Source of the DNA: Longimicrobiales bacterium
GTDB taxonomy: Bacteria > Gemmatimonadota > Gemmatimonadetes > Longimicrobiales > Gaopeijiaceae
Assembly (NCBI GenBank): GCA_965219445.1
Contig: CBDCNQ010000004.1
Coordinates: forward strand, 352,001-416,000
Length of the DNA: 64,000 nucleotides
Direction: 5' to 3'
A program made the position numbers and the translations under genes. This document shows positions 2,480 through 20,109 of this stretch, piece after piece. Each line of letters begins with the position of its first letter. Positions within the stretch are counted from its first letter, which is position 1. A model generated the notes under the pieces. It ran no database searches. It had not been told where the DNA came from and saw only the letters and a program-made list of their open reading frames with translations.

Positions 2480-4294
2480 ATGCTCGTGCTTGGTTTGGGG
2501 GATTACATTGACTGTGGAAGCGCCCTGCTCGACAACGGGAGGGTGGTGGCCGCGATCAATGACGAGAGGCTCGTGCGCAAGCCCTCCGTCCTCGGGATTC
2601 CTAGAGAGTCCATCCGGGAGGTTCTGGCGCTCGCCGGGGTCCGACCCGATGCGGTCCAAGCGGTAGCCGTGGGCACCATCAACAGGCGCCTGGTCGCAGG
2701 TTATACGGAGTTCTTGGGTGGATGGTTCGGGTCGAATGGGAAGCGGCTCGATCAGCGTGTCGTCGATGCGGTAACCCAGGTGAGTCATCGACGAGCGACA
2801 CGTACCTGGAGCCAGGCGGTCACATCGCTTCGGGGCATTCCTACCTTCAAGCACCGCCGCAATAAGCTGCGGCGCGTGCTGCGGAGGGAGTTTGGAATCA
2901 GGGCTCCGGTCCGCTTCGTCGACCACCACTACTGTCATGCGACCTCGGCGTACTTTACGAGCGACTTCGGGCCCGATGCGACCGTCTTCACCATCGACCA
3001 CGGCGCTGACGATGTGTCAGCGAAAGTGTTCGAGGTCACCGAGGGTCGGATGACGGAGATCAAGGCCGTGTCCAGTTTCGACTCACTCGGGGCGTTCTAT
3101 ACGTGCATCGCTGAACTCTGCGGCTTCGACCCGGGAAGGGATGAGCAGCAGGTCAGCGGGCTTTCGGCCCACGGACAACCGGCACATGTGGACCTTCTCG
3201 ACTCGCTGATCACTTTTGAGGACTCCGGATTCGTCAACAGACGTGGCATCCCCTTCGAGGCGGTGGTCGAGACGATTCGACGCGCCCTCCCGGAGGGATG
3301 GGAGAGAGCGGACCTGGCGGCCAGCCTCCAGGCGCACACTGAGCGACTGGTCGGGGAGTTCGTTCGGTTTTGGGTGGAGCAGACAGGACACCGAGACGTG
3401 GCCTTGGGGGGTGGAATCTTCGAAAACGCTCGACTCAACCAGAGGGTCCACGAGATCGACGAGGTGGAGCGTTGCTTCGTGCAACCTGGCATGTCGGATT
3501 CGGGCGTAGGGATCGGTGCGGCGTTGGCCGTCACCTACGAGCGTGTCCCGCGTCCGGCGGCCAATACTCGGGCCTTCGAGAGTGTGTACCTGGGGCGGGA
3601 GCATGGTGCGGAAGAGATGGAAACCGAGCTCGAACGGGCGGGGCTTCAGGTTGAGCGCCCGGAGGATCTGGAATCGGAGGTGGCGTGCCTGCTTTCGCAG
3701 GGAGCGCTGGTATCACGCTTCAGTGGCCGCATGGAGTGTGGGCCCCGCGCGCTGGGAAACCGGGTGGTGCTCTTTGAGCCCACAGATTCCTCGGTGAGCG
3801 AGGATCTGAATCGGCGGCTGGGCCGAAGCGGGTTCTCACCTTTCGGGCCCGTGGTGCTCGAGGAATACGCGAGTAAATGCTTCAACGGCCTCGAGGGGGC
3901 GGAACGGGCCGCACGTTTCATGACCATGACGTTTACGTGCACTCATTGGATGCGGGGGCACCTCCCTGGGGTCGTCCGCATCGACGGGACCGCTCGCCCC
4001 CAGATCGTTCGTCGGCAGGACAACCCCGGGTTGCACCGAATTCTCGAGGAGTACCACCGGCTTACAGGACTGCCAGCTCTCCTGAGCACCAGCTTCAACT
4101 TCCAAAGAGAGCCCACCGTCTGTACACCCGCTGACGCCGTTCGCCTGTTCGGCTTGGGTCACCTCGACTACTTGGCTCTGGGGCCCTTCCTGGTGGCGAA
4201 CCGGACATCGATCACGCTCCAGAGTCCCTCAGTCGGCTTCCCGAAGATGTCGGCGGGGGGGATGCCCGCATCGGCAGATTCCCACCCTGGGTAG
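2480..4294 (+). CDS. carbamoyltransferase (NodU/CmcH family)
   Basis: DERL, HHYCHATSAY, SLGAFY, GRMECGPRALGNR, DGTARPQ, STSFN motifs. Confidence 0.85.
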   Translation: MLVLGLGDYIDCGSALLDNGRVVAAINDERLVRKPSVLGIPRESIREVLALAGVRPDAVQAVAVGTINRRLVAGYTEFLGGWFGSNGKRLDQRVVDAVTQVSHRRATRTWSQAVTSLRGIPTFKHRRNKLRRVLRREFGIRAPVRFVDHHYCHATSAYFTSDFGPDATVFTIDHGADDVSAKVFEVTEGRMTEIKAVSSFDSLGAFYTCIAELCGFDPGRDEQQVSGLSAHGQPAHVDLLDSLITFEDSGFVNRRGIPFEAVVETIRRALPEGWERADLAASLQAHTERLVGEFVRFWVEQTGHRDVALGGGIFENARLNQRVHEIDEVERCFVQPGMSDSGVGIGAALAVTYERVPRPAANTRAFESVYLGREHGAEEMETELERAGLQVERPEDLESEVACLLSQGALVSRFSGRMECGPRALGNRVVLFEPTDSSVSEDLNRRLGRSGFSPFGPVVLEEYASKCFNGLEGAERAARFMTMTFTCTHWMRGHLPGVVRIDGTARPQIVRRQDNPGLHRILEEYHRLTGLPALLSTSFNFQREPTVCTPADAVRLFGLGHLDYLALGPFLVANRTSITLQSPSVGFPKMSAGGMPASADSHPG

Positions 4295-4322: not shown

Positions 4323-5180
4323 ATGGTAGCCCACCACTTCACGGTCGACGTCGAGGAGTACTTCCATTCCTCTGTCCTCGATCGGCTGATCCCGGAAGCG
4401 AGATGGGCAGAGCTGAATCGGCGGGCCCCCCTTTTGGTGCGGCGTCTACTGGACCGGATGGACGCCTTTGGTGTTCGCGGGACTTTCTTCATGCTCGGCT
4501 GGCTAGCTGGGTACGAGCCAGACCTGGTCAAGGAGATCGCCAAGCGGGGCCACGAAGTTGCCTCGCACGGTTGGGATCACAAGCGAATCACTCATCAAAG
4601 CCGGCAGTCGTTTCGGGACTCGGTCCGCCGCACGAAACACCTGCTCGAAGACCTGGTGGGACAAGACGTGCTCGGTTTTCGCGCACCCAGCTTCTCCATC
4701 GTACCCGGAACGGAATGGGCCCTCGACGTTCTGCTCGAGGAGGGTCATCGCTACGATTCGAGCCTGTTTCCAATCAAGCAGCACCCCAACTACGGGTACC
4801 CAGAGGGGGAGCGGGATCCGTACTGGATCACACGTCCGGCCGGCCGCATCGCTGAGATCCCTCCTGCGACGTTGCGACTCGCCGGAACGAATCTGCCCGC
4901 CGCGGGGGGTGCCTACTTTCGGCTGCTCCCGTACCCTTTGATTCGCGGTGCGCTACGCAGCGCACAGGACCGTAGGGTGCCGGGGACCTTCTTCATCCAC
5001 CCGTGGGAGCTCGATCAAGAGCTCCCCGCGCATGTCGTGCTTCCGCCACTGGTGCGGCTGCGCCTCTTCGGAGGGAGGGGTAAGGCTTGGTCCCGCCTCG
5101 ATCGGCTGCTCAGCGAGTTTCGCTTTGGTCCGATCTCGCATACGCTCGCCGCCATGGAATCCCAGGTGCTGGCCGGGTGA
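4323..5180 (+). CDS. polysaccharide deacetylase, XrtA/PEP-CTERM-locus type (DUF3473)
   Basis: FTVDVEEYF, HEVASHG, GFRAPSFSI, AGGAYFR, HPWELD. Confidence 0.9.
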   Translation: MVAHHFTVDVEEYFHSSVLDRLIPEARWAELNRRAPLLVRRLLDRMDAFGVRGTFFMLGWLAGYEPDLVKEIAKRGHEVASHGWDHKRITHQSRQSFRDSVRRTKHLLEDLVGQDVLGFRAPSFSIVPGTEWALDVLLEEGHRYDSSLFPIKQHPNYGYPEGERDPYWITRPAGRIAEIPPATLRLAGTNLPAAGGAYFRLLPYPLIRGALRSAQDRRVPGTFFIHPWELDQELPAHVVLPPLVRLRLFGGRGKAWSRLDRLLSEFRFGPISHTLAAMESQVLAG

Positions 5181-5203
5181 GGCAGGTGGCGGTGGAGGCG
5201 ACC

Positions 5204-6229
5204 ATGCAGATCACCACTGAGGCCAGTGCGCCCGAGGATTGGGGCGGGATTCTGGATGGAGCCGAAGGAGCCACCTTTTGCCACCTCCCAGGTTGGCGGA
5301 GGATCATGGAAGAGATCATGGGCCACCAGTATCTTTTCTTGTCGGCTCGGTCGAATGCGGGGGAGCTGCTAGGCGGTCTGCCTCTGGTGCGTATGCGCAG
5401 CTCGATCTTCGGCCATCATCTGATGTCCCTTCCGTTCTTGAACTACGGTGGCCCATTGGGATCGAATACCGTGCGGACGGCGCTCGCCGAAGTCGCGCAA
5501 CAGTTGGCGCTTGACTCCGGTGCGGACCGTCTCGTGCTCCGTAATCGGACCCCCCTTTCCGTCGGTCTCGATCAAGGCCGAGACAAGGTCATGGTAAGGA
5601 TGGAACTGGGAGATGATGCGGAGTCTCTTTGGAAGAAGGGATTCTCCACCAAACTTCGAAACAAGATCCGAAGGCCCCAAAGGGATGGGATGACCTGTCG
5701 ATTCGGGCCGAGTGAACGCCAGGCCTACTACGAGGTTTTCGCCGAGAACATGCGTGACCTAGGAACGCCGGTCCATTCCCGTCGCCTGTTTGATGGGCTG
5801 GTCGAGGTCTTCCCGGAGGAAGTGATCTTCGGCGTGGTCTACCTCGGCGACGAACCGGTGGCAGGAGGCTGCGGGTTCTTGTGGGGCGGAGAGTTCGAGA
5901 TGACGTGGGCCTCGGCCCTGAAAAAATACAACCGCACGAGGCCTAACATGCTCCTGTATTGGTCTTTCATGGAGGAGGCGATAGGGAGAGGAGCGGCCAT
6001 TTTCAACTTCGGGCGGTGCACTCCGGGTGGAGGGACGCACGTGTTCAAGCGCCAATGGGGTGGAGAGGACACTCCCCTGCCTTGGCTGGAGTGGCACCGG
6101 CATGGCTCGGGCGGACCATCGGCCGACTCGTGGGCGTACGGGACCGCCATACGTCTATGGAAGCACCTCCCACTTCCACTCGCGAATCGCGTCGGGCCGG
6201 TTTTGTCCCGGCGTATTCCTACCTTCTAG
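5204..6229 (+). CDS. FemAB-related protein, XrtA/PEP-CTERM-system type
   Basis: SLPFLNYGG, MRDLGTPV, PNMLLYW, FNFGR, FKRQWG; ATG at 5204 after GGAGG. Confidence 0.88.
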   Translation: MQITTEASAPEDWGGILDGAEGATFCHLPGWRRIMEEIMGHQYLFLSARSNAGELLGGLPLVRMRSSIFGHHLMSLPFLNYGGPLGSNTVRTALAEVAQQLALDSGADRLVLRNRTPLSVGLDQGRDKVMVRMELGDDAESLWKKGFSTKLRNKIRRPQRDGMTCRFGPSERQAYYEVFAENMRDLGTPVHSRRLFDGLVEVFPEEVIFGVVYLGDEPVAGGCGFLWGGEFEMTWASALKKYNRTRPNMLLYWSFMEEAIGRGAAIFNFGRCTPGGGTHVFKRQWGGEDTPLPWLEWHRHGSGGPSADSWAYGTAIRLWKHLPLPLANRVGPVLSRRIPTF

Positions 6230-7092
6230 CTTGTATTCCGTGGGGAGTCGGGGTGCTCGTGATCTACACGGTGTTCAATGTTGGCTATCTGGGGATGAAC
6301 GCGGTGGCAAACCCGGATAGGCGCCTTCAAACCGTGCGCGAATGGGTTGTGAGCAACACCGAGCCCTCGGACCGAATAGGCGCAGCGAGCTATTTTTCCG
6401 TGGATCTGGGGATCTCGACGCACGTCCAGGCAGGCCGGGCGCTCGTGCAGGCGGCCTGCCTGGCATCGCTGTACTGTCCGGACCTCATCGTCGAGAGAAT
6501 GGTCTTCGGTGAGTCTTATCGGTTGCTCTATCTGGACGGAGAGTTCCTGCACGCGGTGCGGCGGCGCGGCGCTCACGTCGTCGGCGATGGCGCCACCGAC
6601 ATTCGGGGGCTTTTAAAACAAGACGGCGTGTTTGGGCTCGAGCGGGACCGCAACTCGCTTCTCACGCTCCGTGCGCAGCGGCTCGAGCACGGATCCGTGC
6701 CGCTCGCCGGACGCGACGTGCTGGTACGCAGCCTTCCTGACGGTGTGCGCGGCACGCGGGAGCTTCGCACCGAGTACGACGAGGACGTGACCGAACTCAT
6801 CTGCGATTCGATCCGCCGCGAAGGCTCAAAGGTGGTGACGTCGATCGGAGTCCGTCTGGCTGGAGTGGATCTGATTCTTTGCGACCCGACCCTGCCCCTC
6901 GCCGAGGGTGGCGGAGTGTTCATCGAGGTCAACGGGACTCCTGGGATCCACCACCATTACATCGATGATGGGCGGGGCGTGCCCCTGGCCATCCCGGTGG
7001 TTGCACGAATGCTGGGATTGGAGTTCCCCGGGACGCCAATCCACTCCGACCGCCCTGTCCCGTGGGCATCATTGACCCCGAAGAGGAACTAG
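6230..7092 (+). pseudogene. truncated cyanophycin-synthetase-like ATP-grasp C-terminal region, preceded by a membrane-protein remnant
   Basis: IVERMVFGESYRLLYLDG, RRRGAHVVGDG, AGVDLI, IEVNGTPG; no N-terminal ATP-grasp region or convincing start after the FemAB stop. Confidence 0.6.
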
Positions 7093-7093
7093 C

Positions 7094-7930
7094 ATGACCC
7101 CCCAGGACGATTCCGCCCCCACGGGCGAGCATCGCCCCGCAGACTATCTCCGGTCCATCGGTGTGCCCGATATCCCCCCCCGCCTCAGTGCGTTCGATCC
7201 GGGCGACGACCTGTTCACTCTCACGGGACACCTGGAGCAAAGCCGGCATCTGATTTCGACCCTCAAGGTCTCGATGGCCTGCTGGATGATCGCCGAGGAG
7301 GGGACGACTCGGCGGAAGGTCGAGGTGGCGAAGAGCTTCGGCATTCGCACCGTGACCGGGGGCGGACCCTTCGAGGTCGCGGTGGCCCAGCGTGAGCTAC
7401 CGGCCTACCTGGACCTCTGCGCGGACATCGGGTTCGATTGCATCGAAGCGGGGGAGGGCTTCACCGAGATGGGCATGGCCCCTGGCGAGGTCCTGTCGAT
7501 GGCGCGAGAGCGCGGGCTCGAGGTACAGTTCGAACTAGGCGAAAAGCACTCCGGCGCTTTTACAGAGGAGGTGGTCCAGGAGCTCCTCGACCAGGGGCAG
7601 CGGTGGCTGGACGCTGGCGCCATCGAACTTGTAGTGGAGGGCCGCGAGAGTGCCAAAGGCGTTGGACTCTTCGATAACGACGGCAACCTCAACGCGGGCT
7701 TCGCTGACCTCTTCGCGGCCAAGTTCGGCATGGAGCATCTCCTCTTCGAGGCCCCGAACAAGTCGAGCCAGTTTGCACTCCTGGATCATTTCGGGCGCGA
7801 GGTCCATCTGTGCAACGTGCGGCTGGAGGAGATCCTGCGTGTCGAGATCTATCGCCGCGGCTTGCACTCCGACGCTTTCCGTCGTGAGAATCTTCGTCCG
7901 AGGAAGGGGGCCGAGGGGCGGCCAGCCTGA
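7094..7930 (+). CDS. comA: phosphosulfolactate synthase
   Basis: GGGPFEVA, YL..C..IGF..IE, ELGEK, VVEGRES, FEAP motifs of the ComA TIM barrel. Confidence 0.85.
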   Translation: MTPQDDSAPTGEHRPADYLRSIGVPDIPPRLSAFDPGDDLFTLTGHLEQSRHLISTLKVSMACWMIAEEGTTRRKVEVAKSFGIRTVTGGGPFEVAVAQRELPAYLDLCADIGFDCIEAGEGFTEMGMAPGEVLSMARERGLEVQFELGEKHSGAFTEEVVQELLDQGQRWLDAGAIELVVEGRESAKGVGLFDNDGNLNAGFADLFAAKFGMEHLLFEAPNKSSQFALLDHFGREVHLCNVRLEEILRVEIYRRGLHSDAFRRENLRPRKGAEGRPA

Positions 7931-7953
7931 CCTCCACGTGAGGAGTACCAGGA

Positions 7954-8670
7954 ATGTCGAAGACCGTCGTCATTGACTGCTTTCCGGAGAGCGCCCGCCA
8001 CTACTGCGAGGCCTACGCCATCGTGGCCATCGATGTGATCCGGGCCACGACCACGGCGATCACGGGCGTTCACCTCGGACGGCGCTGCTTCACGGTGCCG
8101 ACCATCGAGGCCGGCCTGCCTCTGGCAGCTCGCCTCTCCGATCCGCTCCTGGTGGGAGAGCTGGGGGGCAACATGCCTTACGGCTTTCACATGACGAACA
8201 GTCCCGCGCACATCGCCACGCGAGACTACGATATGATGCGGCCGATGATCCTGGTGTCGTCGGGGGGGACCCAACTGATCCACGGCGCCAGGAATGCGCC
8301 GGCGCTCTACCTCGCATGCCTTCGCAACTACAGCGCCACGGTCGACCACTTGGCCGAACGGCATCGGCGCATTGCCGTCCTCGGGGCGGGTACGCGCGGC
8401 GAGTTCCGCGAGGAAGATCAGATGTGCTGCGCTTGGGTCGCACGGGGGCTGATCGAACACGGCTACGCACCAGAGGACGAAAACACCCAAGAGATCGTCG
8501 AGCGTTGGCGCGACTCGCCCGTAGAGGCCTGCGCCGAGGGCAACAGTGCCGCTTACCTGCGAGACACCGGCCAGCTCGAGGATCTGGACTTCATCCTGCA
8601 GTACGTCGACGATCTAAACGCCGTATACATGGTCAAGCATGATGAGGTAGTCGAGATAACAACTACGTGA
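7954..8670 (+). CDS. comB: 2-phosphosulfolactate phosphatase
   Basis: IDVIRATTT, GELGG..PYGF..NSP, LRN, GEFREED; directly downstream of comA. Confidence 0.88.
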   Translation: MSKTVVIDCFPESARHYCEAYAIVAIDVIRATTTAITGVHLGRRCFTVPTIEAGLPLAARLSDPLLVGELGGNMPYGFHMTNSPAHIATRDYDMMRPMILVSSGGTQLIHGARNAPALYLACLRNYSATVDHLAERHRRIAVLGAGTRGEFREEDQMCCAWVARGLIEHGYAPEDENTQEIVERWRDSPVEACAEGNSAAYLRDTGQLEDLDFILQYVDDLNAVYMVKHDEVVEITTT

Positions 8671-8678
8671 TACCGCCC

Positions 8679-9810
8679 ATGAGAGTCCTTCACCTTCTGG
8701 CCCCGGCGCAAGTCGGAGGACTCGAGCGCGTCGTCCAGGGCCTTGCCGATGGGTTCTGCCGCCGGGGGCACTCGGTGACCGTTGGGGCGGTTGCTGCGGG
8801 GGACGACCCGTTGTCACCGTTCCTCGAGCCATTGATCAAAAGAGGAGTAAAAGTCCGCCGGATTCATGTGCCACACCGCGCTTACGTGCGAGAGCGTCGC
8901 CGAATGGCGGAAATATGCCGCCAAGTAAACCCGGACGTGCTGCATAACGCATGGATATCGGCCCGACCTCCTCGCCAGGGGTCCGGCAAAGAGGCAGGGG
9001 ATCGCGACCGTCACCACTGTACACGGCTTTACCGGAAACGGATGGAAGAACCGCTTCTACGAGGCTCTGCAAGTTCAGGCCTTCAAGAAATTTGACGCGG
9101 TTGTGGCCGTCTCAGAGCCCATCCGGAAAGGATTGGTCAAAGCCGGGGTCCTCAAGAGCCGAGCCTGGATGATCCGGAATGCCCCGGTTTGTTTGGAGGC
9201 ATCTTTGACCCGCACGGAGGCTCGACGGGCTCTTGGCCTCCCCGAGGAAGGGCCGATCGTAGGATGGGTGGGGCGCCTGAGCCCCGAGAAGGGCCCGGAT
9301 GTCCTACTTAGGGCCGTGACCCTGATTGGCCGGCCCCAGGTACGCCTCTCCTACCTCGGAGACGGTTCCTCACGGGTAGCTCTCGAGGCACAGGAAAGAG
9401 AGATAGTGGCCCACGGATCAGTGGATTATGATCGAGTTCGCTTCCACGGCAATGTCGCGAACGCGGGCCGCCTGCTAAAGGCTTTCGATGTCTTGGTATT
9501 GAGCTCCCGGAGCGAGGGTACACCTATGATCCTTTTCGAAGCCATGGATGCTGAGGTGCCGGTGGTCGCCACTCGGGTTGGCGGGGTGCCGGATGTGGTG
9601 ACCGAACAAGAGGCGATTCTGGTTCCATCGGAGGATGCTGAGGCGTTGGCCCACGGTATTCGGCAAGTGCTCCACAACCCCACGGACGCTAGTCAACGGG
9701 CGCAGGGAGCTCGACTTGTACTCCGACAGAAGTTCGCCCCAGAGCGTTGGCTGGATGCGTACGAGGACCTCTACCGTGCTGTAATGGCAGGTAGGAGAGG
9801 CCTTGGCTGA
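8679..9810 (+). pseudogene. glycosyltransferase family 4, frameshifted
   Basis: Removing one A at 8946-8947 restores PDVLHTHGYRPD...TVHGF and joins to the C-terminal part containing SSRSEGTPMILFEAM. Confidence 0.85.
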
Positions 9811-9891
9811 TCGTATGCCACCTCCAGATAGCGGATTGGCTCCACTCCCCTATGCGGAGGGATCGTCATGCGCAGAGTTCCCTAGGACCGC

Positions 9892-9918
9892 GCCTGGATG
9901 ATCCGGAATGCCCCGGTT
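9892..9918 (+). repeat. 27-bp exact copy of GT4 internal sequence 9163-9189
   Basis: GCCTGGATGATCCGGAATGCCCCGGTT at both positions. Confidence 0.9.
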
Positions 9919-10074
9919 AGCTTGGGATCTGAACCGAGAGGAGTTCGGGAGATATTGGGTCACGGATCCGATGCCGTGTTGTCTTGCTCAGAGATGGCTC
10001 CGCGGCGGATGGCCCTCGAAACCCAGAAACCCGAGATGGAGGACTGTAATCGCAAGTAGCCGAGGGCCGCACTG

Positions 10075-11247
10075 ATGGGAGACCTGGGGATCGTTCTCCT
10101 CGGCGTTGGGGCAGGGCTATTCGCCTACACTTACGTCCTCTATCCGGGGCTCCTGAGAGTCTTGGGTACCGGCAAGGCACGCCTTGGCCCCCTTGTGGAC
10201 TCTGACGATTGGCCGACCCTGAGCATCTCGCTTCCCGCCTACAACGAGGAGCACCAGATCGCAGAGACACTCGAGAGCCTGTTGTCTCTGAATTATCCAA
10301 GAGACCGTATACAAATCTTGGTGGTTTCGGATGCTTCCACGGACAAAACAGACGATATCGTGCGGGCATACGGGGACCGTGGAGTGGAACTCCTCCGTCT
10401 CCCGGAGCGTCGAGGAAAAGGGGCCGCGGAGACGGCCGCAACGCCACACCTCACGGGTGAGATCGTTGTCAATACGGACGCATCGATCCGCATCGTCCCC
10501 GACGCGTTGAAGCCCCTGATCCGACAGTTCTCCGACCGTGAAGTGGGCTTGGCATCCGGTCGGGATATCAGCGTGGCCCCAGGCGTGGAAAACGCGAACA
10601 AGGGTGAGTCGAAATATGTGGGATACGAAATGGCGATCCGTAACCTGGAAACTCGGGTGGGGAGTATCGTAGGAGCTTCCGGGTGCTTCTATGCTATCCG
10701 GCACCATCTACATCGGTCACCGTTGCCCGTCCCTTTGAGTCGGGACTTCGCCGCTGCTCTTCTCTGCCGCGAGCGGGGTTATCGTGCCGTCTCGGTCCCT
10801 GAGGCGATCTGCTTTGTGCCGAGGGCTGCGTCACTAAGCCAGGAGTACCGTCGCAAGGTACGGACCATCACGCGTGGCCTGTGGACGCTGCTCCACAAGC
10901 GGAGCCTGATGAACCCATTCCGGTACGGGCTGTTCGCGTGGATGCTCTTCAGCCACAAAGTGTGCCGGTGGCTTGTGCCTTGGGCGGGTGTGACCGCCCT
11001 GGTCGGACTCGCTCTGATGACTCCCAGCATACCCTGGGCCCGCCTAGGCCTTCTGGTTGCGGGCGCCGGCCTCTTGTTGGGATCTGTCGGTTGGCTGGCG
11101 TCAGACCGGCGAAATCTTCCCTGGATTCTCGAATTTCCCGCCTTCGGCCTCATCGGAAATGTAGCCGCGATGCACGCGGTGCTACGGGTGATGAGGGGAG
11201 AAACGTACGCGCTGTGGGATCCGACGCGGAGAGCTTCGGTTCTCTAG
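10075..11247 (+). CDS. glycosyltransferase family 2
   Basis: PAYNEE, SDASTD, TDA, GASGCFYAIR, RRKVR; C-terminal TM helices. Confidence 0.92.
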   Translation: MGDLGIVLLGVGAGLFAYTYVLYPGLLRVLGTGKARLGPLVDSDDWPTLSISLPAYNEEHQIAETLESLLSLNYPRDRIQILVVSDASTDKTDDIVRAYGDRGVELLRLPERRGKGAAETAATPHLTGEIVVNTDASIRIVPDALKPLIRQFSDREVGLASGRDISVAPGVENANKGESKYVGYEMAIRNLETRVGSIVGASGCFYAIRHHLHRSPLPVPLSRDFAAALLCRERGYRAVSVPEAICFVPRAASLSQEYRRKVRTITRGLWTLLHKRSLMNPFRYGLFAWMLFSHKVCRWLVPWAGVTALVGLALMTPSIPWARLGLLVAGAGLLLGSVGWLASDRRNLPWILEFPAFGLIGNVAAMHAVLRVMRGETYALWDPTRRASVL

Positions 11248-12002
11248 ATCGCACCCCGCTTCATGACAACTACAGGGAGTGTCCGTGCCATGATCTCGAG
11301 ATCCAGAAGGGGGGAGCGGTTGCGGATGTACTCCAGGTCCAGATCTGCCTTCCTCCGCACATCGTCGATCGAGCGATCGTAATGGTGGCATACCTGGGCG
11401 AGCCCGGTGATTCCCGGAAGGACCTGCTGCCGGCCGGAAAGGTGGCGGACCTCACCGCGGAGTCGGACGAAAATATCCGGCTGTTCCGGACGCGGACCGA
11501 CCAGGTTCATGTCTCCGGTCAGCACGTTCCAGAACTGAGGGAGCTCATCAAGCCGATACTTCCGGAGGAACTTACCGACTCGCGTGATCCGCGCGTCGCC
11601 CTCCTCGGCCCAAACCTGGGAGGAGTCAGAGTCCGCTTGGACCATCGACCGGAACTTGTAGATGGTGAAGATCCGACCCCCATAGTCCTGGCTTCGGCGC
11701 GCCTCCTCCCGTCGGCTACGTAGTCCGCGCCGGTCCAGACCTACACGCGGCTGCATGAACAGGACCGGTCCTCGGGAGGTCAGCTTCACCACTACCGCAA
11801 CGGCCAGCATCAAGGGCGATAACACAGGTAGGACGACTAACGCTGCCAGCACGTTGAGAGCTCTGCACATGCCCTGGTTGAGGGCCGATCTCCCTTTCAG
11901 AGTCCGAGGTCGAACGAACTCCGGCTCCCGATAGTATAGCCTGAGACCATTCGGCAGGATGTCAACGCCCGTCGAAGCGCTCGTTTGAGTCTCTACCTGC
12001 AC
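11244..12002 (-). CDS. priming sugar transferase (Bac_transf)
   Basis: IYKFRSM, LDELPQFWNVL.GDMNLVGPRPE, PGITGLAQV. Confidence 0.93.
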   Translation of the reverse strand: MQVETQTSASTGVDILPNGLRLYYREPEFVRPRTLKGRSALNQGMCRALNVLAALVVLPVLSPLMLAVAVVVKLTSRGPVLFMQPRVGLDRRGLRSRREEARRSQDYGGRIFTIYKFRSMVQADSDSSQVWAEEGDARITRVGKFLRKYRLDELPQFWNVLTGDMNLVGPRPEQPDIFVRLRGEVRHLSGRQQVLPGITGLAQVCHHYDRSIDDVRRKADLDLEYIRNRSPLLDLEIMARTLPVVVMKRGAI

Positions 12003-12101
12003 CTAGCCTCTGTGCTCCACTCGAGGTCTCTGCCTGCAATCCGCTTAAGACGGCGAGATGCAAGATGCGTTCACAGATCGTGGCCCTACTTCACGATTAC
12101 C

Positions 12102-12842
12102 TTAAACCCTATGACAGCAATTATTTACGTGACTGGACATTCGATCCAACGGGGAGTGCGTGCGGACCGACGTGTCGTGAAGAGAAAAGGCGACTGCCTC
12201 ATCGTACTGACGGGAGGCCTCCTCTTGGGCAATAGTCATCAGGTCGTTGGAGACTCCTGCTAACCCCAACGCAGCAGAATAGATGAGGCCAAGCTGGCTT
12301 TTTTGCAGCTCGGTGAGACTTCCGCTCTGCCCATTCCGCAACGCCTCGGCAAGGAAAAGGATCGAGGTGAGAGGCGACCGCAGATCGTGAGCCACTTCAG
12401 CCACGAGTCGAAATGCGTTGGTTTCCGGCATTAGGGGCTCGAAGCCCTCGATGGCCGGTGCTTCGGCGAGGAGATCTATCGAGTGCAGCAATGCGAGAAC
12501 TCGATCCTGGTCGACGATTGGGTCCTCACGGTGCCATTGCTCGAGGAGACTCCTCCGAATCGCCGCAAGCAGGCGTACGTCGGTGTGCTCCAACGTCTCT
12601 TGCCCTTCACCATCCTCATACAGGACTCGGCCATCGCCGACCCGGTCCAGACGTATTGCGATGCGCATCAGTGCGTGGTCTATGGAGGATTCGCCGTCGG
12701 ACCCATTGGTCCAGTGGGGAGCCCACTCGGCAGATACCTCCCGAAGCGCCGTCTGGAGAGCGGGGCAGAACACCGCGGCAAACGGGTCGCTCGACCGGCG
12801 CTCGTCGACCGGATTCAGACCGGATGCGTCTGCGAGCATCAA
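12102..12842 (-). pseudogene. sensor histidine kinase, truncated (HisKA present, HATPase missing)
   Basis: AHDLRSPLTSI H-box; frame degenerates after FSLHDT with no N/G boxes. Confidence 0.75.
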
Positions 12843-13434
12843 TCCGGCTCCGGCAGTAGGGTGGTGCGGTGGGTTCCGTGCTTCTCCATGAGTCGATAGA
12901 GCGTCGTCCGGTCTACACCCGCATGCCGAGCCGCGTTGGAGATGTTTCCACCCGCCTGCTTGACAGCGTGCTCCAGATACGCCCGCTCGAAATCCGCCAG
13001 AATCAACTCACGGGCCTCATGGTAGCCCTTGTTCAGGTGGGACGACATGGGAGCGAATGCAGCTTCGGGCGAGACACCCTCACCCTCGAAGAAGGGGATC
13101 TCGTCGGGTCCGAGTTGTTGCCCGGGAGGTCGCAGCACTGAGATGCATTCGATGATGTTTCGCAGTTCTCTCACGTTGCCGAGCCAGGGACGGGCACGTA
13201 GTGACGCGAGGCCTTCGGGCGTAAAGATAGGGCGATCGAGTTCCTTCCCACGGTGTCGAATCCAGAACTCATCCAGAAAGGATTCGGCCAACGTCTCGAT
13301 GTCGTCTGGGCGCTCCCTGAGTGGCGGTATGTGAATCGGGAAGACCCGGAGCCGGTAATACAGATCTCCCCGCAGGCGCTTTTCTTTGAGCGCCTCAGTG
13401 GCGTCTTCGTTCGTGGACGAGATGAATCGTACTT
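12839..13434 (-). pseudogene. sigma-54-dependent response regulator, C-terminal part (end of AAA+ domain plus Fis HTH)
   Basis: VRFISSTN, DLYYRL, PPLRER, W.GNVREL, AARHAGVDRTTLYR. Confidence 0.9.
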
Positions 13435-13463
13435 GAGGTTGGGTCAATAGGTGTGTAAATGTT

Positions 13464-14708
13464 TCAGGCGGCGTTTTTCCGCTGTTGGGTTGAGACGGGC
13501 TTTCCGTCTTCGAACTTTCTTCCTTCAAATACGTCCTTGAGGAGGTGAGGAGCGTCGAGCCTTCTGAAGCGCTTCTCCGCCACCAAGAGCAGCTTCCAGA
13601 TCAGCGCCGTAGCGCTCTCGACCCGCTTGAAGCGCTTCGCCGCCGTTGTCCTGAGCCGTACTGCGGCAAAGGGGCTCTCGACCACGTTCGTCGTGCGTAG
13701 ATGCTTCCAGTGGTCCTCGGGGAAGTCGTAGAACGCCACCATCCGCTCCCAGTCGTCCTCGAGTACATCCACCGCCTTCGGATACCACGGTCTGTAGCGC
13801 CTGGCGAACGCCTCACGGGCCTTCAGCGCCTCGGACCGCCTCGGTGCGTAGACCACGGTCCTGAGAAGGTCCTTCGCCTCGCTCTGCTCCCGCTGAGGCA
13901 GCCGGTCCAGCACGTTCCTCATCTTGTGGTTCCAGCACCGTTGCTCGCCCGCCTCAGGCCATACCTGCCGTACTGCGCCCCAGATCGCCGCGTTGCCGTC
14001 CGCCATCAAAAGCCGGGGCGCCTCGATGCCGCGTGCCTTCAGATCCCGCAACACCTCGGACCAGGACTCGACCGACTCTCGGTAGCCCGATCTCAGGGCC
14101 AACACCTCCTTCGTACCATCTCGCATCGCACCGAGAACCACCAGCAGCGCTGCCTTGTCCCGCTCGAGCCCCGCCTTCACGTAGATCCCGTCCGCCCAGA
14201 CGTAGACGACCTCACGGTCGGCCAGCGAGCGCTTCGACCATTCCTCGAATTTCCTTGTCCATCCCGCCCGCAGCCGCCAAATCGAAGACTTCGACAACGG
14301 GGCCCCCTCGCCCAGCAGGCCCCGCATCGCCAGCTCGAAGTCTCCCTCCGCCAGCCCGTGCAGATACAGCTCCGGAAGCAGAGCACCCACCTCCTTCGTC
14401 CGTCGTGCGAACAACGGCAACACCCGACTCTCGAACCGCTCCTCAATGCCTCGAACCCGGGGCCGTCGGAGCATGATCGTGCCCGAGCTCATCGCCAGCC
14501 GCCGAGCCTTGCCGTAGCCGTTGCGGTAGCCTGGCGCCGGGTCTACGACCGTCTTCCGCTCCGACTTCTCCCGGCCGAGCAACTCCGTCACTTCCTCCTC
14601 CAGAATCCGCTGGACCATCTCCTGGGCCTTCTCACGAACCAGCGCTTCCAAGCACTCCCACGTCGGCGTGCTGGACTCACTCTCGGGTCCCACCATATTC
14701 TTCCTCAC
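13464..14708 (-). CDS. IS256-family (Mutator) transposase
   Basis: YRNGY, YVWADG, ADG, QRCWNHK, LRTTNVVES. Confidence 0.95.
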   Translation of the reverse strand: MRKNMVGPESESSTPTWECLEALVREKAQEMVQRILEEEVTELLGREKSERKTVVDPAPGYRNGYGKARRLAMSSGTIMLRRPRVRGIEERFESRVLPLFARRTKEVGALLPELYLHGLAEGDFELAMRGLLGEGAPLSKSSIWRLRAGWTRKFEEWSKRSLADREVVYVWADGIYVKAGLERDKAALLVVLGAMRDGTKEVLALRSGYRESVESWSEVLRDLKARGIEAPRLLMADGNAAIWGAVRQVWPEAGEQRCWNHKMRNVLDRLPQREQSEAKDLLRTVVYAPRRSEALKAREAFARRYRPWYPKAVDVLEDDWERMVAFYDFPEDHWKHLRTTNVVESPFAAVRLRTTAAKRFKRVESATALIWKLLLVAEKRFRRLDAPHLLKDVFEGRKFEDGKPVSTQQRKNAA

Positions 14709-14924
14709 GAGGCATCGTTCCTTTCCCCCGGGCGCTCACCCGGGATTCGCTGGTTAACTTCTTACTACCTAGCGGAAAGGTACGTCGCCTCTTTTTTTAC
14801 ACACCCTTCTATGGGGCTGGCGGTCAAGACGCACCTTCCCCACGCGCCGTCGGCTCATTTTTTGACCGTCGGCGTCCGCATGGTTTGGATTGCCCGGTCG
14901 ACGACTCAGGGTGGGGAGGGGTGC

Positions 14925-15120
14925 GCTCGCAGGGTCCGCATCGCAGTCCGGAAGACGTTCACAGCCGTCGCGTTCTCCGCTCTGGAGCGGGAACCATCCT
15001 TCTATCTGGGACTCTGTGGCCCATCGCTTCGTTCGGCTCTCCAGGGGTGCATAGCCTTTGAGTGGGGGCTTGGGCTCTCTGCCCCGGCCCACGGTGTGTA
15101 TGGATGCTGTCCCCTGTAAC
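14925..15120 (-). ncRNA. putative bridge/seek RNA of the IS110/IS1111 element
   Basis: Two stem-closed loops carrying target guides (UACACACC, UCAAAGG) and donor guides (AUAGAAGG, GAUGC); boundaries approximate. Confidence 0.75.
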
Positions 15121-15193
15121 CGGTTCGCTTCCGTTTCGTCGGACCCCATGTTGTGACCGCTTTCGACCCCACGCTCGCCGATCCCAGGCCGGT

Positions 15194-16249
15194 TTACTCC
15201 GTCGCTTCCAGTCTCTTGGGGTCGTACGCTTCGCCCGTGCGCCACACCGCTAGCACGATCGAGGCGAGCTGACGCGCGATCGTCAGCTTCGCCAGATTCG
15301 GCTTCGTGCCCCCCTCCAGGAGTCGCTCGTAGTGGCGGTACAAGGGTTCGTTTTCGGCCCGACCGATCACCGTCGTCGCCGCGCCCTTGAACACACGCTT
15401 CAGCGTGTGGTTGAAGTTCCGATTCAGCCCCCGCGTCTGCTGTACCGGTTCCCTTACCCACCGCCCACCCGGACCCCGCACCCAGTCCGACGAGCTCCGC
15501 ATCACGACGCCCAGTCCGCAGTACGCCCAGAACCTGCTCCGGCTCTGGAACCGGTACGGCGTCACCACCACCGGCAGGAGCTCCGCCGTCCGGATCGGAC
15601 CCAGACCCGGGCACGTCTTCAGCACATGCCACTCTCGATGCTTGCGTGCTTCCGCCAGCAAGGCCTTCTCGGCCTTCGCCCTCAATGCCACGAGTGCGTC
15701 GTGCTCCTCGTACAGCAACCCGGCCGTCGTCCTGCTCGCTTCCGGCAGCTTGGCCAACCACTCCTCCCGGTCGCGCTTTAAGTAGACCGAGCGCCCCGCG
15801 CCGTAGGCCACTCCTCTCGAGCGCAGCACGCTCTTGAGCCGGTTCTTCACCCGCACCGTGTCGCCGACCAGGAAGTCGTAGCTCTTCGCCCGTTCCCCCA
15901 GCCGCCTGAACTGGCCCCGGTTCTTGTAGACCCTCGTCTCCAGTGATCCGATCCGCAGCTTCTCCGCCAGGGCAAACGCGTCCAGCTTGTCGGTCTTCGG
16001 GCCCCGGCTCTTGCCGACCCCCGCCACCGTTAGCTCCTCCACGTGCGGCTCCAGCACCTCGTACAGCCACCCCGACAGCGTCCCTTCTTCCAGGCACAAG
16101 TGCCGGTTCCTCGGAATCCCTCGCAGCACCTCGATCAGCGCCCGCGCGTTCGTCTCCACCACCTGCGAGCCCAAGCGCTTGCCGCTGGGGCCTACAATCC
16201 CCAGCGTGCAGCTCGACGCGTGTGCGTCGAGTCCGATATATCTCTCCAT
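15194..16249 (-). CDS. IS110-family DEDD transposase/recombinase
   Basis: YIGLD, LEEG, KTDKLDA (DEDD), PGLGP, GLG..MRSSS with catalytic serine; ATG at 16249 after AGGAG. Confidence 0.95.
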   Translation of the reverse strand: MERYIGLDAHASSCTLGIVGPSGKRLGSQVVETNARALIEVLRGIPRNRHLCLEEGTLSGWLYEVLEPHVEELTVAGVGKSRGPKTDKLDAFALAEKLRIGSLETRVYKNRGQFRRLGERAKSYDFLVGDTVRVKNRLKSVLRSRGVAYGAGRSVYLKRDREEWLAKLPEASRTTAGLLYEEHDALVALRAKAEKALLAEARKHREWHVLKTCPGLGPIRTAELLPVVVTPYRFQSRSRFWAYCGLGVVMRSSSDWVRGPGGRWVREPVQQTRGLNRNFNHTLKRVFKGAATTVIGRAENEPLYRHYERLLEGGTKPNLAKLTIARQLASIVLAVWRTGEAYDPKRLEATE

Positions 16250-16410
16250 CGGCGTTCTCCTCTTGGATAGGTGGGTTGCTTCCTTGCGCGAACAATGATG
16301 AACGCGCACCCGCTCCCGGAGGAGAACGCCTCTTCGTCTTCGGGCTGCTTCGCTGCTGATCGGTACCGGTAGCCGTCGCCATGCCCCTATGATGCCTTTG
16401 ATCCTAGCTC

Positions 16411-17322
16411 TCGTACTTCGGCCAGGACGTCAGTGTCGGTGCTCCCCACACGGCGGATAACCCCATCTTGGATGACCCTGAGAAGCTTGGCCTGAGTGGG
16501 CATCGGCATCTGGGTGAGCTCATCCAGGAAAAGGGTCCCGCCGCTGGCTATCTCCATCAGACCCTTCTTGTCGCTCACCGCGCCCGTGAATGAGCCAGCG
16601 ACGTGTCCGAACATCTCCGACTCCACCAGATTGTCGGGGACGGCGGCACAGTTGATCGACACCATCGACCGACTGCTTCTCCGGCTGTTCTGGTGGATGA
16701 ATTGCGCGATCAACTCTTTGCCCGTGCCGCTCTCGCCGCTGAGGAACACAGTGGCATTCGTACGTGCGACGCTCCTGGCCATGTCGACAACCCGCCCAAG
16801 AGCAGCCGATTGACCAAGAATAGGGATCTCCGCGCCGTATCCCAATCCGGTCTCGTGGCTCTGGTACTGCTTGTCGCTCTCTCTCGACACGACGATCGCG
16901 TGCGCGGCCCGCCCCATGAGAATGTGGAGATGGGTAGCCGAAAAGGGCTTCGGGATATAGTCCCAAGCCCCCAGACGAAGGGCCTCGAGGCTGGTCTCCA
17001 CCGACGGCTTCCCGGTCATCATGACGACCAAGCACTCTTCGTCCTTCTCCACCGCAGCGTTCAGGAGATCCATTCCCGAGACGTCTCGCATGTAGAGGTC
17101 GAGCAGAACGATCTCAAAATGACGACGACGAATGAAGTCGAGAGCCTCCTCTCCGCCCGCCGTTACTGGAAACCCTTCGGCACGAAGCAAGGACGCACAA
17201 CTCTCGCGGAGGCTGTGGTCGTCGTCGACCACGAGTACGGGCATGGTCGATTTTACGTCGGTCTCGACGATCGTCGGGGGCCTCTCGCTGCCAGGCGTCC
17301 CTGTGGCTTCGGACGTCTTCAA
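16411..17322 (-). pseudogene. sigma-54-dependent response regulator, N-terminal part (REC plus AAA+)
   Basis: VLVVDDD, LLDL, GESGTGKE, ESEMFGH, GSFTGA, LFLDE, QAKLLRV; ends at the IS256 TSD. Confidence 0.92.
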
Positions 17323-17670: not shown

Positions 17671-20109
17671 GTGGAAGTAAACAAAAAGACGTGTTGGGAC
17701 GATGAGGACACCGTGAACAAAGACGAGTTGCCGGCTCCCAGCGCGGGGGTCGAGTTCCCGCTTATGGCGGCGCCGGATTCGCCGGACGTCAGTTACGAGT
17801 CTTTCGGCTCGGACCAGGATGAGGATTCCGGCGTCGACGTGCGGCGGCTCGTCGCGGCTGTTTTTCGCTTCAAATGGGTGGTGGCTCTTGCCACGATCCT
17901 GGGAGCCGTTGCGGGGGGAATAGCCTGGTCCAGAGTGGACCTGGAGTACGTCGCGGGAGGGTCTCTGTGGTTGCAGGCCTCCGGGGGTCAACTTCGAAGT
18001 CAGGGTCCGATCACCGGAGCTGAGCTGCTGAGCTCTTCTTCCTGGATTGAGCTCCTCAGGTCCCTCGCGGTGCTGAATACGATGGCGGTCGAACAGAGGC
18101 TCTACTTGAGCGTGCCCGACACGACCTTCAGGCCGGTGTTCGTTTCGTTTGGGATCGACGAGACGTTGGTCCCCGGGGATTACGAGCTCCATTATGCACC
18201 CGTGACACAGACGGTGACACTTTTTCGTGAGGGACTCATCGTCGAGAGTGCGGCGCCTGGAGCAAGGCTTGGCACCACGGTGGGATTTGACTGGACCCCG
18301 CCGGTAGAGGCGCTTGCAGCTGAGGAACGGATCCAGTTCTCCGTCGCTGCACCGCGGGTCGTGGCGGGCCAGATCCGAGCAAACCTCACCACTCAGATGG
18401 ACCAGAACGGGGCCTTCATGCGTGTCCAGCTCAGGGGGAGAGACCCAGTTGAAGTCGCGTCCACGCTCAACGCGATCCTGGACCGGCACGTCAACCTCGC
18501 GGCCGACTTGAAGAGCGCCGCCCTCGACGAGCGGACATCTGTTCTCGAAGGACAGCTTGCTACCGTCGAGAGTGAGCTTCGGGACTCCGAGCGACAGCTC
18601 GAGTCGTTTCGGATCAACACGATTGCCCTCCCGTCGGACGCCGCCATGCCCATTCAGGGAGGCATCCAGCTAACGCAGGGACCCGTATTTCAGACCTACA
18701 ACAGCCTGAAAATCGAAATTGAGGAGCTGCGTGCTGGGCGGAGAGCGATGGAGCGTGTGCTGGCGAGCCTGCCGGACTCGACGCTCAGGGTAGAGGTTCT
18801 GGAAACCATTCCCGAGGTTGCGACCTCTTCTCAACTCGTCACGGCGCTGAACGAACTCACCAATGCCCGCGTCCTGCTTCGCTCGCTCAAGCAGCGCTAT
18901 ACCGACGAACACACGGACGTGCAGGATCTCACGCGGGTGACCCAGATACTCGAAACCGAAACGATCCCAGACCTCCTGCGGTCCCTTGTTCAACGGGTCC
19001 AGGACACCGAGGAACGACTGCAGGTTCGGATCGACGAGGCAACTATTGAGCTGGGCGATATTCCTCCCCGAACCATCGAGGAGACCGGATTGGTACGGCG
19101 AGTCGCTTTGGCCGACCGCCTTTATGGGGACCTCAGAGGGCGGTATCAGGAGGCGGTGCTGGCATCGGCCAGTTCAGTGCCTGACGTCCGAGTACTCGAC
19201 CGCGCATCCCCGCCGAGGACGCCCGAAGTGGACGCCCGTGTTCGGGCGGCTTTGATTTCTCTTCTTCTCGGACTCGGAATCGGGCTAGGCTTGGCAGCCC
19301 TTTTGGATCGTGCCGACACTCGCGTCCAGTACACCAGTGACGTCACCAACGCGCTCGGGCTTGACATCCTCGGGGTTGTCCCAGTGATGAAAAACGGACG
19401 CGAACAGAGCCGGCGCCAAGCGGTGGAGGCCTTCCGGGAACTCCGCATGAACTTGGAGTTCGCGTACGGAGCCGGGAAGCCACTCGCTCTGACGCTGACG
19501 AGTCCGGATCAGTCGGAGGGTAAGTCGACGCTGGTGGCTAATCTGGCGACCAGCTTCGCCTCGGTCGGTCGCAAAACCCTGGTGATCGATGGGGACACAC
19601 GAAGGGGGGATCTGCATCGGATGTTGGAAGTGCCGCGGAAACCTGGCCTCACCGAGTTCCTCCGAGGCGACGCTGCCCTCACCGAAACGGTCCAGGCTAC
19701 CGGGTATTCAGGGGTCCACCTCATTGCGTCGGGCTCCCGCTTCCAATCCTCTCCAGAGCTGCTCGCCTCCGGGAAGCTCGGCGATCTTCTGGGTGAGTTG
19801 TGGGCGCGCTACGACGTCATATTAGTGGATAGCCCGCCGCTCGGCGCTGGCGCCGACGCCCTGATCCTGGGAACTCTCACCGGTCAACTCGGGCTCGTTC
19901 TCCGAGCCGGCCAAAGCGACATGAGCTTCGCACAAGCGAAGTTGGGAGCTCTTGAGCGTCTTCCTGTTAGGATGCTCGGCGTGATTCTCAACGCCTTTGT
20001 TCCGGGACGAGCGCAGGGGCACTACGCTTATGCGGACTACATCGAGGGATACGGCTCGGCAGATGAAACGGAGGAACCAGAGGCCCTCTTAGGCGTGGTG
20101 GAACGGTAG
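17671..20109 (+). CDS. polysaccharide co-polymerase / tyrosine autokinase (Wzc/GumC family)
   Basis: Two TM segments, coiled coils, Walker A EGKST, IDGD.RR, VDSPP, Tyr cluster HYAYADYIEGY; start may be GTG at 17713. Confidence 0.92.
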   Translation: MEVNKKTCWDDEDTVNKDELPAPSAGVEFPLMAAPDSPDVSYESFGSDQDEDSGVDVRRLVAAVFRFKWVVALATILGAVAGGIAWSRVDLEYVAGGSLWLQASGGQLRSQGPITGAELLSSSSWIELLRSLAVLNTMAVEQRLYLSVPDTTFRPVFVSFGIDETLVPGDYELHYAPVTQTVTLFREGLIVESAAPGARLGTTVGFDWTPPVEALAAEERIQFSVAAPRVVAGQIRANLTTQMDQNGAFMRVQLRGRDPVEVASTLNAILDRHVNLAADLKSAALDERTSVLEGQLATVESELRDSERQLESFRINTIALPSDAAMPIQGGIQLTQGPVFQTYNSLKIEIEELRAGRRAMERVLASLPDSTLRVEVLETIPEVATSSQLVTALNELTNARVLLRSLKQRYTDEHTDVQDLTRVTQILETETIPDLLRSLVQRVQDTEERLQVRIDEATIELGDIPPRTIEETGLVRRVALADRLYGDLRGRYQEAVLASASSVPDVRVLDRASPPRTPEVDARVRAALISLLLGLGIGLGLAALLDRADTRVQYTSDVTNALGLDILGVVPVMKNGREQSRRQAVEAFRELRMNLEFAYGAGKPLALTLTSPDQSEGKSTLVANLATSFASVGRKTLVIDGDTRRGDLHRMLEVPRKPGLTEFLRGDAALTETVQATGYSGVHLIASGSRFQSSPELLASGKLGDLLGELWARYDVILVDSPPLGAGADALILGTLTGQLGLVLRAGQSDMSFAQAKLGALERLPVRMLGVILNAFVPGRAQGHYAYADYIEGYGSADETEEPEALLGVVER

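Follow-up and report, generated by a model that had tools for sequence, protein, structure and literature searches.

The window studied here, a 64,000-nucleotide stretch of a Longimicrobiales bacterium genome (contig CBDCNQ010000004.1, positions 352,001 to 416,000; the genome is called G000 below), carries an intact pair of genes, comA and comB, which lie in the same direction and are separated by a 23 bp gap. comA (7094..7930, + strand, as are all genes given below unless stated otherwise) encodes a putative phosphosulfolactate synthase of 278 amino acids (aa), which matches PF02679 with 154.8 bits (cut-off 25.2) and belongs to a clade with the motifs DPG, KxSMA and GGGPFE; comB (7954..8670) encodes a phosphatase of 238 aa from a cassette-specific clade (PF04029, 111.9 bits, cut-off 26.4). 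Just upstream lies a 5'-truncated gene for an ATP-grasp ligase of the cyanophycin-synthetase-like type, here called type B (6407..7092; NF010623, 79 bits, residues 151-351 only), and just downstream a gene for a GT4 glycosyltransferase (8667..9810, probable start at ATG 8679), the halves of which fall on two open reading frames (ORFs) owing to a +1 frameshift near 8946-8950. The locus is a decaying copy of a cassette, with a truncated ATP-grasp gene, the usual ligase missing and a frameshifted GT4.

The glycan-modification run opens with a NodU/CmcH-family carbamoyltransferase gene (2480..4294; Pfam Carbam_trans_N and Carbam_trans_C), also present in a genome of the same genus (G001). Its product reads DYIDCG and INDER at the N-terminus, where we take HD and EER to be the usual motifs; G001 shows these motifs too, so that this is a conserved variant rather than local decay. 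Next come an XrtA-type polysaccharide deacetylase (4323..5180; TIGR03006, 293 bits, cut-off 276.2), a possible source of free amines, and a FemAB-like GNAT protein (5087..6229, ATG 5204 being the probable start; TIGR03019, 264 bits, cut-off 260.35). Beyond the GT4 gene there is a GT2 glycosyltransferase with membrane segments (10075..11247; PF00535, 81 bits), followed on the minus strand by a priming sugar transferase (11244..12002; PF02397, 197 bits) and a sigma-54 response regulator (12839..17322), identified from ORF translations and clustering with sigma-54 regulators. The regulator is in two parts, 16387-17322 and 12839-13528, split by transposase-like ORFs at 13464-14708 and 15194-16309, a label given by recognition and not by a family scan. 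The cluster continues with a Wzc-type tyrosine autokinase and chain-length protein (17671..20109; TIGR01007, 126.9 bits, cut-off 108.05) and a weak Wza-like SLBB export protein (21487..22275; PF10531 and PF02563 below cut-off). In having a deacetylase and a FemAB-like protein above their cut-offs the cluster resembles XrtA/PEP-CTERM exopolysaccharide (EPS) loci; it differs from them in that no exosortase was found in G000 and in that the comA cassette is an accessory insert. Flippase and polymerase queries gave no match in the genome at E 1e-6, and no gene for a 3'-phosphoadenosine-5'-phosphosulfate (PAPS) sulfotransferase lies in the window cluster, two PF13469 matches being located elsewhere in G000. 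A glycerol-3-phosphate dehydrogenase/oxidase-like gene (296-2008, - strand) is divergent from the glycan run and is a neighbour in G001 too.

The lesions around comA-comB are best seen by comparison with other loci. Full-length relatives of the window ATP-grasp protein have about 350-370 aa, and homology to them begins only near 6407; by alignment with seven loci (L037, L045, L101, L110, L011, L031 and L035) about 150 N-terminal residues are missing, that is the N-terminal 40%, including the VKP lysine motif and the loop that follows it. In-frame with the remnant stands a hydrophobic 60-codon piece (6226..6406) which shows no ATP-grasp kinship, does not align to the full-length relatives and had no tblastn match in the loci or elsewhere in the genome; it is perhaps the leftover of a membrane protein gene. 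In the closest locus found, L037 (ComA 91% identical), the VKP region is present and the GT4 gene unbroken. The window comA has two private changes at near-invariant sites, P33A and R116C, which may hint at relaxed selection, but comA and comB are 90-91% identical to those of L037, with mostly synonymous changes. A short duplicated GT4 piece at 9877..9930 (blastn against L037, frame translation), a scar of rearrangement, adds to the picture of decay, as does the split sigma-54 regulator.

Contigs of run X1, which may be the source sample, span the entire stretch without a difference; junction 6407 is bridged unchanged by contigs of four runs (X1-X4) from two studies, X4 coming from the second, and the frameshift site 8946-8950 by contigs of X1-X3, from one study. 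An assembly error behind the lesions was rejected, since contigs of other runs carry identical ones. No RNA data set was listed among the carriers of the stretch, a result that has no bearing on its expression. The original prediction had described an intact, co-directional comA-comB pair tightly packed between deacetylase, FemAB and ATP-grasp genes and glycosyltransferases, within an exopolysaccharide operon. The pair itself is as described, and so are the deacetylase, FemAB and glycosyltransferase neighbors; however, only a remnant is left of the ATP-grasp gene, a frameshift disrupts the GT4 gene, and the tight comB-GT4 packing reflects a spacing short by about 190 bp relative to L037, a decay that the earlier reading overlooked. 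As to the operon, wzc starts 9 kb beyond the comA-comB run, and since opposite-strand genes and the two transposase-like ORFs intervene, it belongs to the same cluster but not to one operon.

We scored 109 loci of the clade of this ComA, namely 29 from GTDB and the best 80 of 595 metagenome matches. comB comes next after comA in 97 of the 98 loci with enough downstream DNA, and 67 of 70 scorable loci have an ATP-grasp gene no more than 6 kb away. In 61 of these 70 the gene directly after comB encodes a conserved ligase some 400 aa long (type A), type B being the minor form (9/109). A class I methyltransferase is found directly upstream in 33/70 loci. Of the 43 loci whose flanks reach 10 kb or more, 36 have a glycan marker, and 30 have at least two; the queries were taken from clade loci, and genomes and loci are related, so that these counts, like those of the control below, are descriptive and do not amount to a statistical test. 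The contexts differ among hosts, with Wzc, Wza and exosortase in Acidobacteriota, and GT2, GT4, PIG-L and epimerase in Bathyarchaeia, where a PIG-L deacetylase follows the cassette.

Other ComA homologues served as a control, using genome samples chosen without regard to neighborhood and dropping four ComA fragments shorter than 190 residues (L154, L155, L180 and L201). A type A ligase lies within 1.5 kb in 9/9 clade loci (two being sample centers and seven unselected) versus 0/34 other ComA homologues. Over 16-20 kb, the same glycan queries found a marker in 4 of 6 unselected clade loci, Pfam adding a GT4 in a fifth, and in 1 of 16 loci of other ComA homologues, where Pfam added one flippase. 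The original prediction had called for a survey of recurring linkage, and such linkage of comA-comB to ATP-grasp and glycan genes does recur, in many phyla of bacteria and archaea alike, and is not seen with other ComA homologues. Moreover, type A ligase and polysaccharide deacetylase form a single ORF in two genomes of one genus (G402 and G310), thus one event; L036 has the ligase fused to the methyltransferase, and L035 types A and B to each other. Atlas clusters for the type A ligase carry the automatic name carboxylate--amine ligase, and those of the methyltransferase a generic name too; the type A ligase may resemble D-aspartate ligase.

Several loci depart from the common arrangement. 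In L031 (9433-16794) and L035 (768-7677) comA-comB faces a convergent run of a flippase, three ATP-grasp domains and a CapA/PGA_cap protein. In two Binatia-like genomes (L030 and L036, about 9800-13600) the cassette sits between truB and rbfA, and no glycan gene is found up to 10 kb away. In L160 the glycan genes include one for a sulfotransferase, beside the cassette, and one for an Antibiotic_NAT-family acyltransferase (14523-15380 and 4599-5495).

The best 120 protein matches to the window ComA are 67-100% identical to it, and the 29 GTDB loci, 59-75% identical, come from bacteria and archaea: Acidobacteriota, Bathyarchaeia, Methanomicrobiales, Chloroflexia, Bacteroidota, Gemmatimonadetes, Binatia, Hyphomicrobiaceae and Solirubrobacteraceae. 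In contrast to this spread, the cassette comA was not found in any of 11 same-genus genomes (73-95% complete) or of 36 same-family genomes searched. In the genomes sampled for the control, ComA-family genes as a whole were found in 11/401 of the phylum of the host, in 15/201 of the class Bathyarchaeia and in 19/301 of Acidobacteriota. From the high identity across domains and the patchy presence we infer horizontal spread. In one of our ComA trees, all of them quick trees, the clade stands on a long branch with a Shimodaira-Hasegawa-like approximate likelihood ratio (SH-aLRT) of 100.

The window ComA is the only comA product in G000. Its structural model (predicted local distance difference test score 90.2) is a TIM barrel which finds its best fold match in Methanocaldococcus jannaschii ComA (1QWG; template modeling score, TM, 0.80-0.89, root-mean-square deviation 2.4). 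The positions aligned to M. jannaschii E103, E133, K137, E168, R170, E171, E205, N227, E237, R240, R241 and D246 are conserved in 109/109 clade loci, the window included; we assume catalytic and metal-binding roles for these acidic, Lys137 and Arg residues. Nearly all clade loci depart from M. jannaschii ComA at five positions, changing DKG to DPG, GWGT to SMAC and GGT to GGG, so that the (G/A)(W/F)GT and GGT loop motifs of the tested enzymes are replaced by SMAC and GGG. XcbB, the Xanthobacter homologue, itself has DTG and AFGT, thus leaving W/F46M, G47A and T76G as the clade-specific changes. ComB retains D27, R30, G68-E69, N82-S83-P84, D155 and D210, common to other ComB proteins (motifs DVxR, GE, NSP and D). 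There are two comB-family genes in the genome; the second (contig C4, 576341-576979; L144) scores higher, lies without comA between accC and ftsK, near efp, and probably encodes a housekeeping phosphatase.

A LarA homologue with Asn at the second catalytic His lies just upstream of comA in 21/109 clade loci, among them L013 (4653-6479) and L081 (6346-7722). Its closest relative is malate racemase (NCBIfam, 168 bits against a cut-off of 500; in the PDB, 103 bits, barely ahead of a broad-range racemase). LarA proteins with Asn at this position are a type without known substrate that may act one-way (PMC12611868). As LarA enzymes use 2-hydroxy acids, the homologue fits a free sulfolactate-like intermediate and, by analogy, points to a free 2-hydroxy acid without identifying it; the cassette context in turn suggests a candidate substrate for Asn-type LarA.

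The best explanation of these data is that comA and comB are the first two of the three genes of a mobile make-and-attach cassette, the gene for an ATP-grasp ligase coming third; an S-adenosylmethionine (SAM) methyltransferase, a second ligase or a LarA homologue is often added. Judging by family membership, ComA would join sulfite to phosphoenolpyruvate (PEP) to give phosphosulfolactate, and ComB would take the phosphate off to leave sulfolactate; ATP-grasp chemistry and gene context suggest that the ligase would then turn the sulfolactate carboxylate into an acyl phosphate and, with a free amine, into an amide. The acceptor would be an amino sugar of an exopolysaccharide or of a protein-linked glycan, its amine freed by the de-N-acetylase, and the product an N-sulfolactyl glycan bearing a C-S sulfonate that would need no PAPS sulfotransferase. 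Genes for ATP sulfurylase, sulfite reductase and a CysH-like reductase lie elsewhere in G000; given these assimilatory sulfate reduction genes, sulfite should be available.

The gene identities, the clade, the linkage, the fusions and the decay of the locus are established here. That the cassette is a make-and-attach module we consider highly probable; that its acid is sulfolactate is probable, and that the acceptor is a glycan amine is as probable or slightly more so, the LarA homologue and the ligase-deacetylase ORF supporting a free acid and attachment to a glycan amine, respectively. Combining these three, with their dependence allowed for, leaves the full reading, in which sulfolactate is made and then amide-linked to a deacetylated amino sugar of a surface glycan, just short of an even chance, on sequence grounds. 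In its widest form, held a shade more tentatively, a horizontally spread cassette of Acidobacteriota, Bathyarchaeia and at least six further groups may equip bacterial exopolysaccharides and the surface glycans of archaea with N-(3-sulfolactyl) amino sugars or with related 3-substituted-lactyl ones, exchanging N-acetyl for a sulfonated acyl group by means of a re-tuned ComA and an uncharacterised ATP-grasp family; inversion of the hydroxy acid may fall to the single-histidine LarA homologue, and its capping to the methyltransferase. The idea of a sulfonate decoration, possibly activated by the ATP-grasp enzyme, put forward in the original prediction, is in keeping with the family-wide linkage, but product and acceptor are inferred and the window ligase is truncated and of the minor type; the idea fits the cassette family better than the window locus.

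A number of observations weigh against the sulfolactyl glycan. Both proteins score under the NCBIfam equivalog cut-offs, ComA with 153.9 bits against TIGR03849 (cut-off 280; XcbB reaches 319.5) and ComB with 73.6 bits at best (cut-off 235) and 54.8 against TIGR00298 (cut-off 175). W/F46M, G47A and T76G are fixed in all scorable clade loci, and the frequent upstream methyltransferase is unexplained by the sulfolactate scheme. A deacetylase or PIG-L occurs in only 13/43 long loci, 7/43 show no glycan marker by our queries, two of these seven having other genes of EPS type, and 3/70 have no nearby ligase; no cysH or sulfite reductase homologue was found in the 109 loci with one query each. The window deacetylase already has its usual partner, the FemAB-like protein. 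The type A ligase has weak PDB and NCBIfam matches only (best E 7.5e-5) and no close solved relative, the LarA homologue is of the Asn-for-His type, for which no substrate is known, and the glycan counts, as said above, are descriptive.

Some of these points would suit an alternative in which the cassette acted on a glycan as proposed but the clade ComA added another nucleophile, such as sulfide or a thiol, to PEP, the 3-substituted lactate perhaps being S-methylated by the cassette methyltransferase before ligation. The three fixed loop changes, the long branch of the clade and the absence of sulfite-supply genes from the loci all lean this way, as does the methyltransferase, which is doubled in L062, L075 and L085 in addition to its adjacency and its fusion in L036. 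Nevertheless, every acidic, Lys and Arg residue common to M. jannaschii ComA and XcbB is retained, all the tested ComA enzymes that we found use sulfite, and two of the five changed positions are also altered in XcbB, an enzyme confirmed to add sulfite (PMC9457059). Sulfite thus remains our best guess for the nucleophile; another one has a real chance, and we regard this account as unlikely overall, if the strongest of the alternatives.

Slightly less probable again is that sulfolactate is ligated to an amine other than a glycan amine (that of an amino acid, polyamine, lipid, protein lysine or natural product) and that the glycan link reflects shared regulation or a common insertion site. Complete cassettes have housekeeping genes around them in L030 and L036, those of L062, L065 and L069 show no glycan markers, some loci have two or three ligases, and a ComA of the same clade belongs to a Streptomyces nonribosomal peptide synthetase (NRPS) cluster, next to acyl carrier protein (ACP) and ketosynthase (KS) genes. 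The recurrence of glycan genes in most long loci, across glycan systems as unrelated as Wzc/exosortase and archaeal glycosyltransferase ones, argues against it, and so does the ligase-deacetylase fusion.

An opposite polarity, in which the ligase activates the carboxylate of a glycan uronic acid and the sulfonate is the nucleophile (cysteate, taurine or a sulfolactate ester), appears improbable. It has a chemical precedent in the taurine amide of Staphylococcus aureus CP1 (PMC12043029), and some loci contain UDP-sugar dehydrogenase or amidotransferase genes; however, the neighbors of the 29 GTDB loci include no recurrent dehydrogenase, transaminase or decarboxylase family, and ComC was not found in 6/6 genomes.

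The coenzyme M route was examined separately. G000, which is 91.8% complete, gave no match to the ComC family PF02615, a best ComE score (TIGR03846) of 35.4 against a cut-off of 221.5, ComD not being searched separately, and no match to XcbA; its matches to XcbC and XcbD are 25-30% identical, distant and unlinked paralogues elsewhere in the genome. ComC was likewise not found in the five other cassette genomes, for which completeness is not given. A role in coenzyme M synthesis was rejected on these grounds and is unlikely; a pathway completed elsewhere in the genome, which would have counted against the original prediction, was not found. Ordinary synthesis of free sulfolactate or coenzyme M with an incidental position in the cluster is the least probable account and largely excluded as the ancestral role, for although ComA and ComB are steps one and two of the archaeal pathway (PMC9457059), Bacillus subtilis yitCD is inferred to give spore sulfolactate (PMC517825) and free sulfolactate may be the sole remaining output of this decayed locus, the coenzyme M genes were not found, as just described, and the ligase linkage is specific to the clade.

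With regard to G000 itself, the ligation step is probably dead: the neighboring ligase gene is cut short, the reading frame of GT4 is broken, and the usual type A ligase was not found in the genome, the sole tblastn match being 24% identical over 223 residues. At most, free sulfolactate would still be made in this genome. An intact version of the locus was sought in the genus, where one of 11 genomes (G001) matched, its contigs breaking at the expected position of the cassette. Owing to its broken ligase G000 is a poor test object, and better taken as a snapshot of cassette loss.

Further ComA-like proteins were seen along the way. On a Streptomyces plasmid (NZ_CP108119.1, L122:6098-30741; five similar plasmids were among the matches) there is a ComA of the same clade, 52% identical and with no comB in the stretch, within the NRPS cluster mentioned above; it adjoins SbnB, ACP, MbtH, two KS genes and a methyltransferase. 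Close by are argH and genes for an ATP-grasp protein, cysteine synthase and a kinase, and a sulfonated peptide natural product is a candidate for the product of this cluster. A second, divergent ComA-like group with the motif KFA(G/A)GS lacks the residues aligned to K137 and R170 (L145, L146, L148, L166, L167, L171-L179, L191 and L193); two members adjoin MmgE/PrpD genes, and the group is probably not a sulfolactate synthase. A third group has DWG or DKG, KI(A/V) and ELP motifs (L194-L198 and L174) and comes from several Acidobacteriota genomes and one Bathyarchaeia genome. Finally, a Legionella lytica plasmid (L125:2847-5759) encodes a 970-aa protein with a canonical ComA domain at its end, followed by comB, with an aminotransferase upstream.

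The cassette can be set beside several known systems. It shares with the archaeal coenzyme M enzymes the fold, the acidic, Lys and Arg residues and an adjacent ComB-family phosphatase; it differs in that the window ComA is 26% identical in the structure alignment and has the three fixed loop changes, and in that an ATP-grasp ligase follows, in glycan loci, instead of ComC and ComDE. In B. subtilis, yitA, yitB and yisZ are sulfite-supply genes; none of this kind was found linked to the clade. The yitCD and yitBA-yisZ genes of B. subtilis include a comA-comB pair, with sulfolactate and not coenzyme M as the inferred end product (PMC517825), but there sulfolactate is a free metabolite. The Brevibacillus comA-comB locus has no ligase. 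The XcbA-E pathway of Xanthobacter autotrophicus Py2 includes a confirmed phosphosulfolactate synthase, XcbB, 32% identical; unlike the cassette, which has no linked xcb genes, it proceeds by phosphate elimination through XcbC instead of ComB (PMC9457059). In the misNOPQ 2-sulfoacetyl cassette of misaugamycin-B a ComA homologue is also proposed to supply the sulfo-acyl group of an amide, and addition of sulfite favored the sulfonated product, but the acyl group is C2, activation is by ACP and a coenzyme A ligase, and the acceptor is a peptide (PMC9136965). S. aureus CP1 is likewise a bacterial polysaccharide with an amide-linked alkyl sulfonate, of reverse polarity, a sulfonated amine being placed on a uronic acid carboxylate (PMC12043029). 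Full-text literature searches, which left most subscription journals outside their coverage, returned no sulfolactyl glycan and no account of this cassette. We know of no ComA link for the CP1 taurine amide.

Strongly anionic microbial glycans are usually ascribed to sulfate esters made by PAPS sulfotransferases, to uronic acids or to phosphate. An acyl group with a C-S sulfonate would be new among glycan substituents, and sulfatases should leave it in place. If the proposed reading is true, an orphan ATP-grasp family, the divergent ComA clade and the single-histidine LarA group would all gain a function, and coenzyme M synthesis should not be read from comA-comB alone in soil bacteria or Bathyarchaeia. 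The reading would also mean a PAPS-independent route to sulfatase-resistant anionic glycans and an unrecognised biological source of organosulfonates in soils and sediments.

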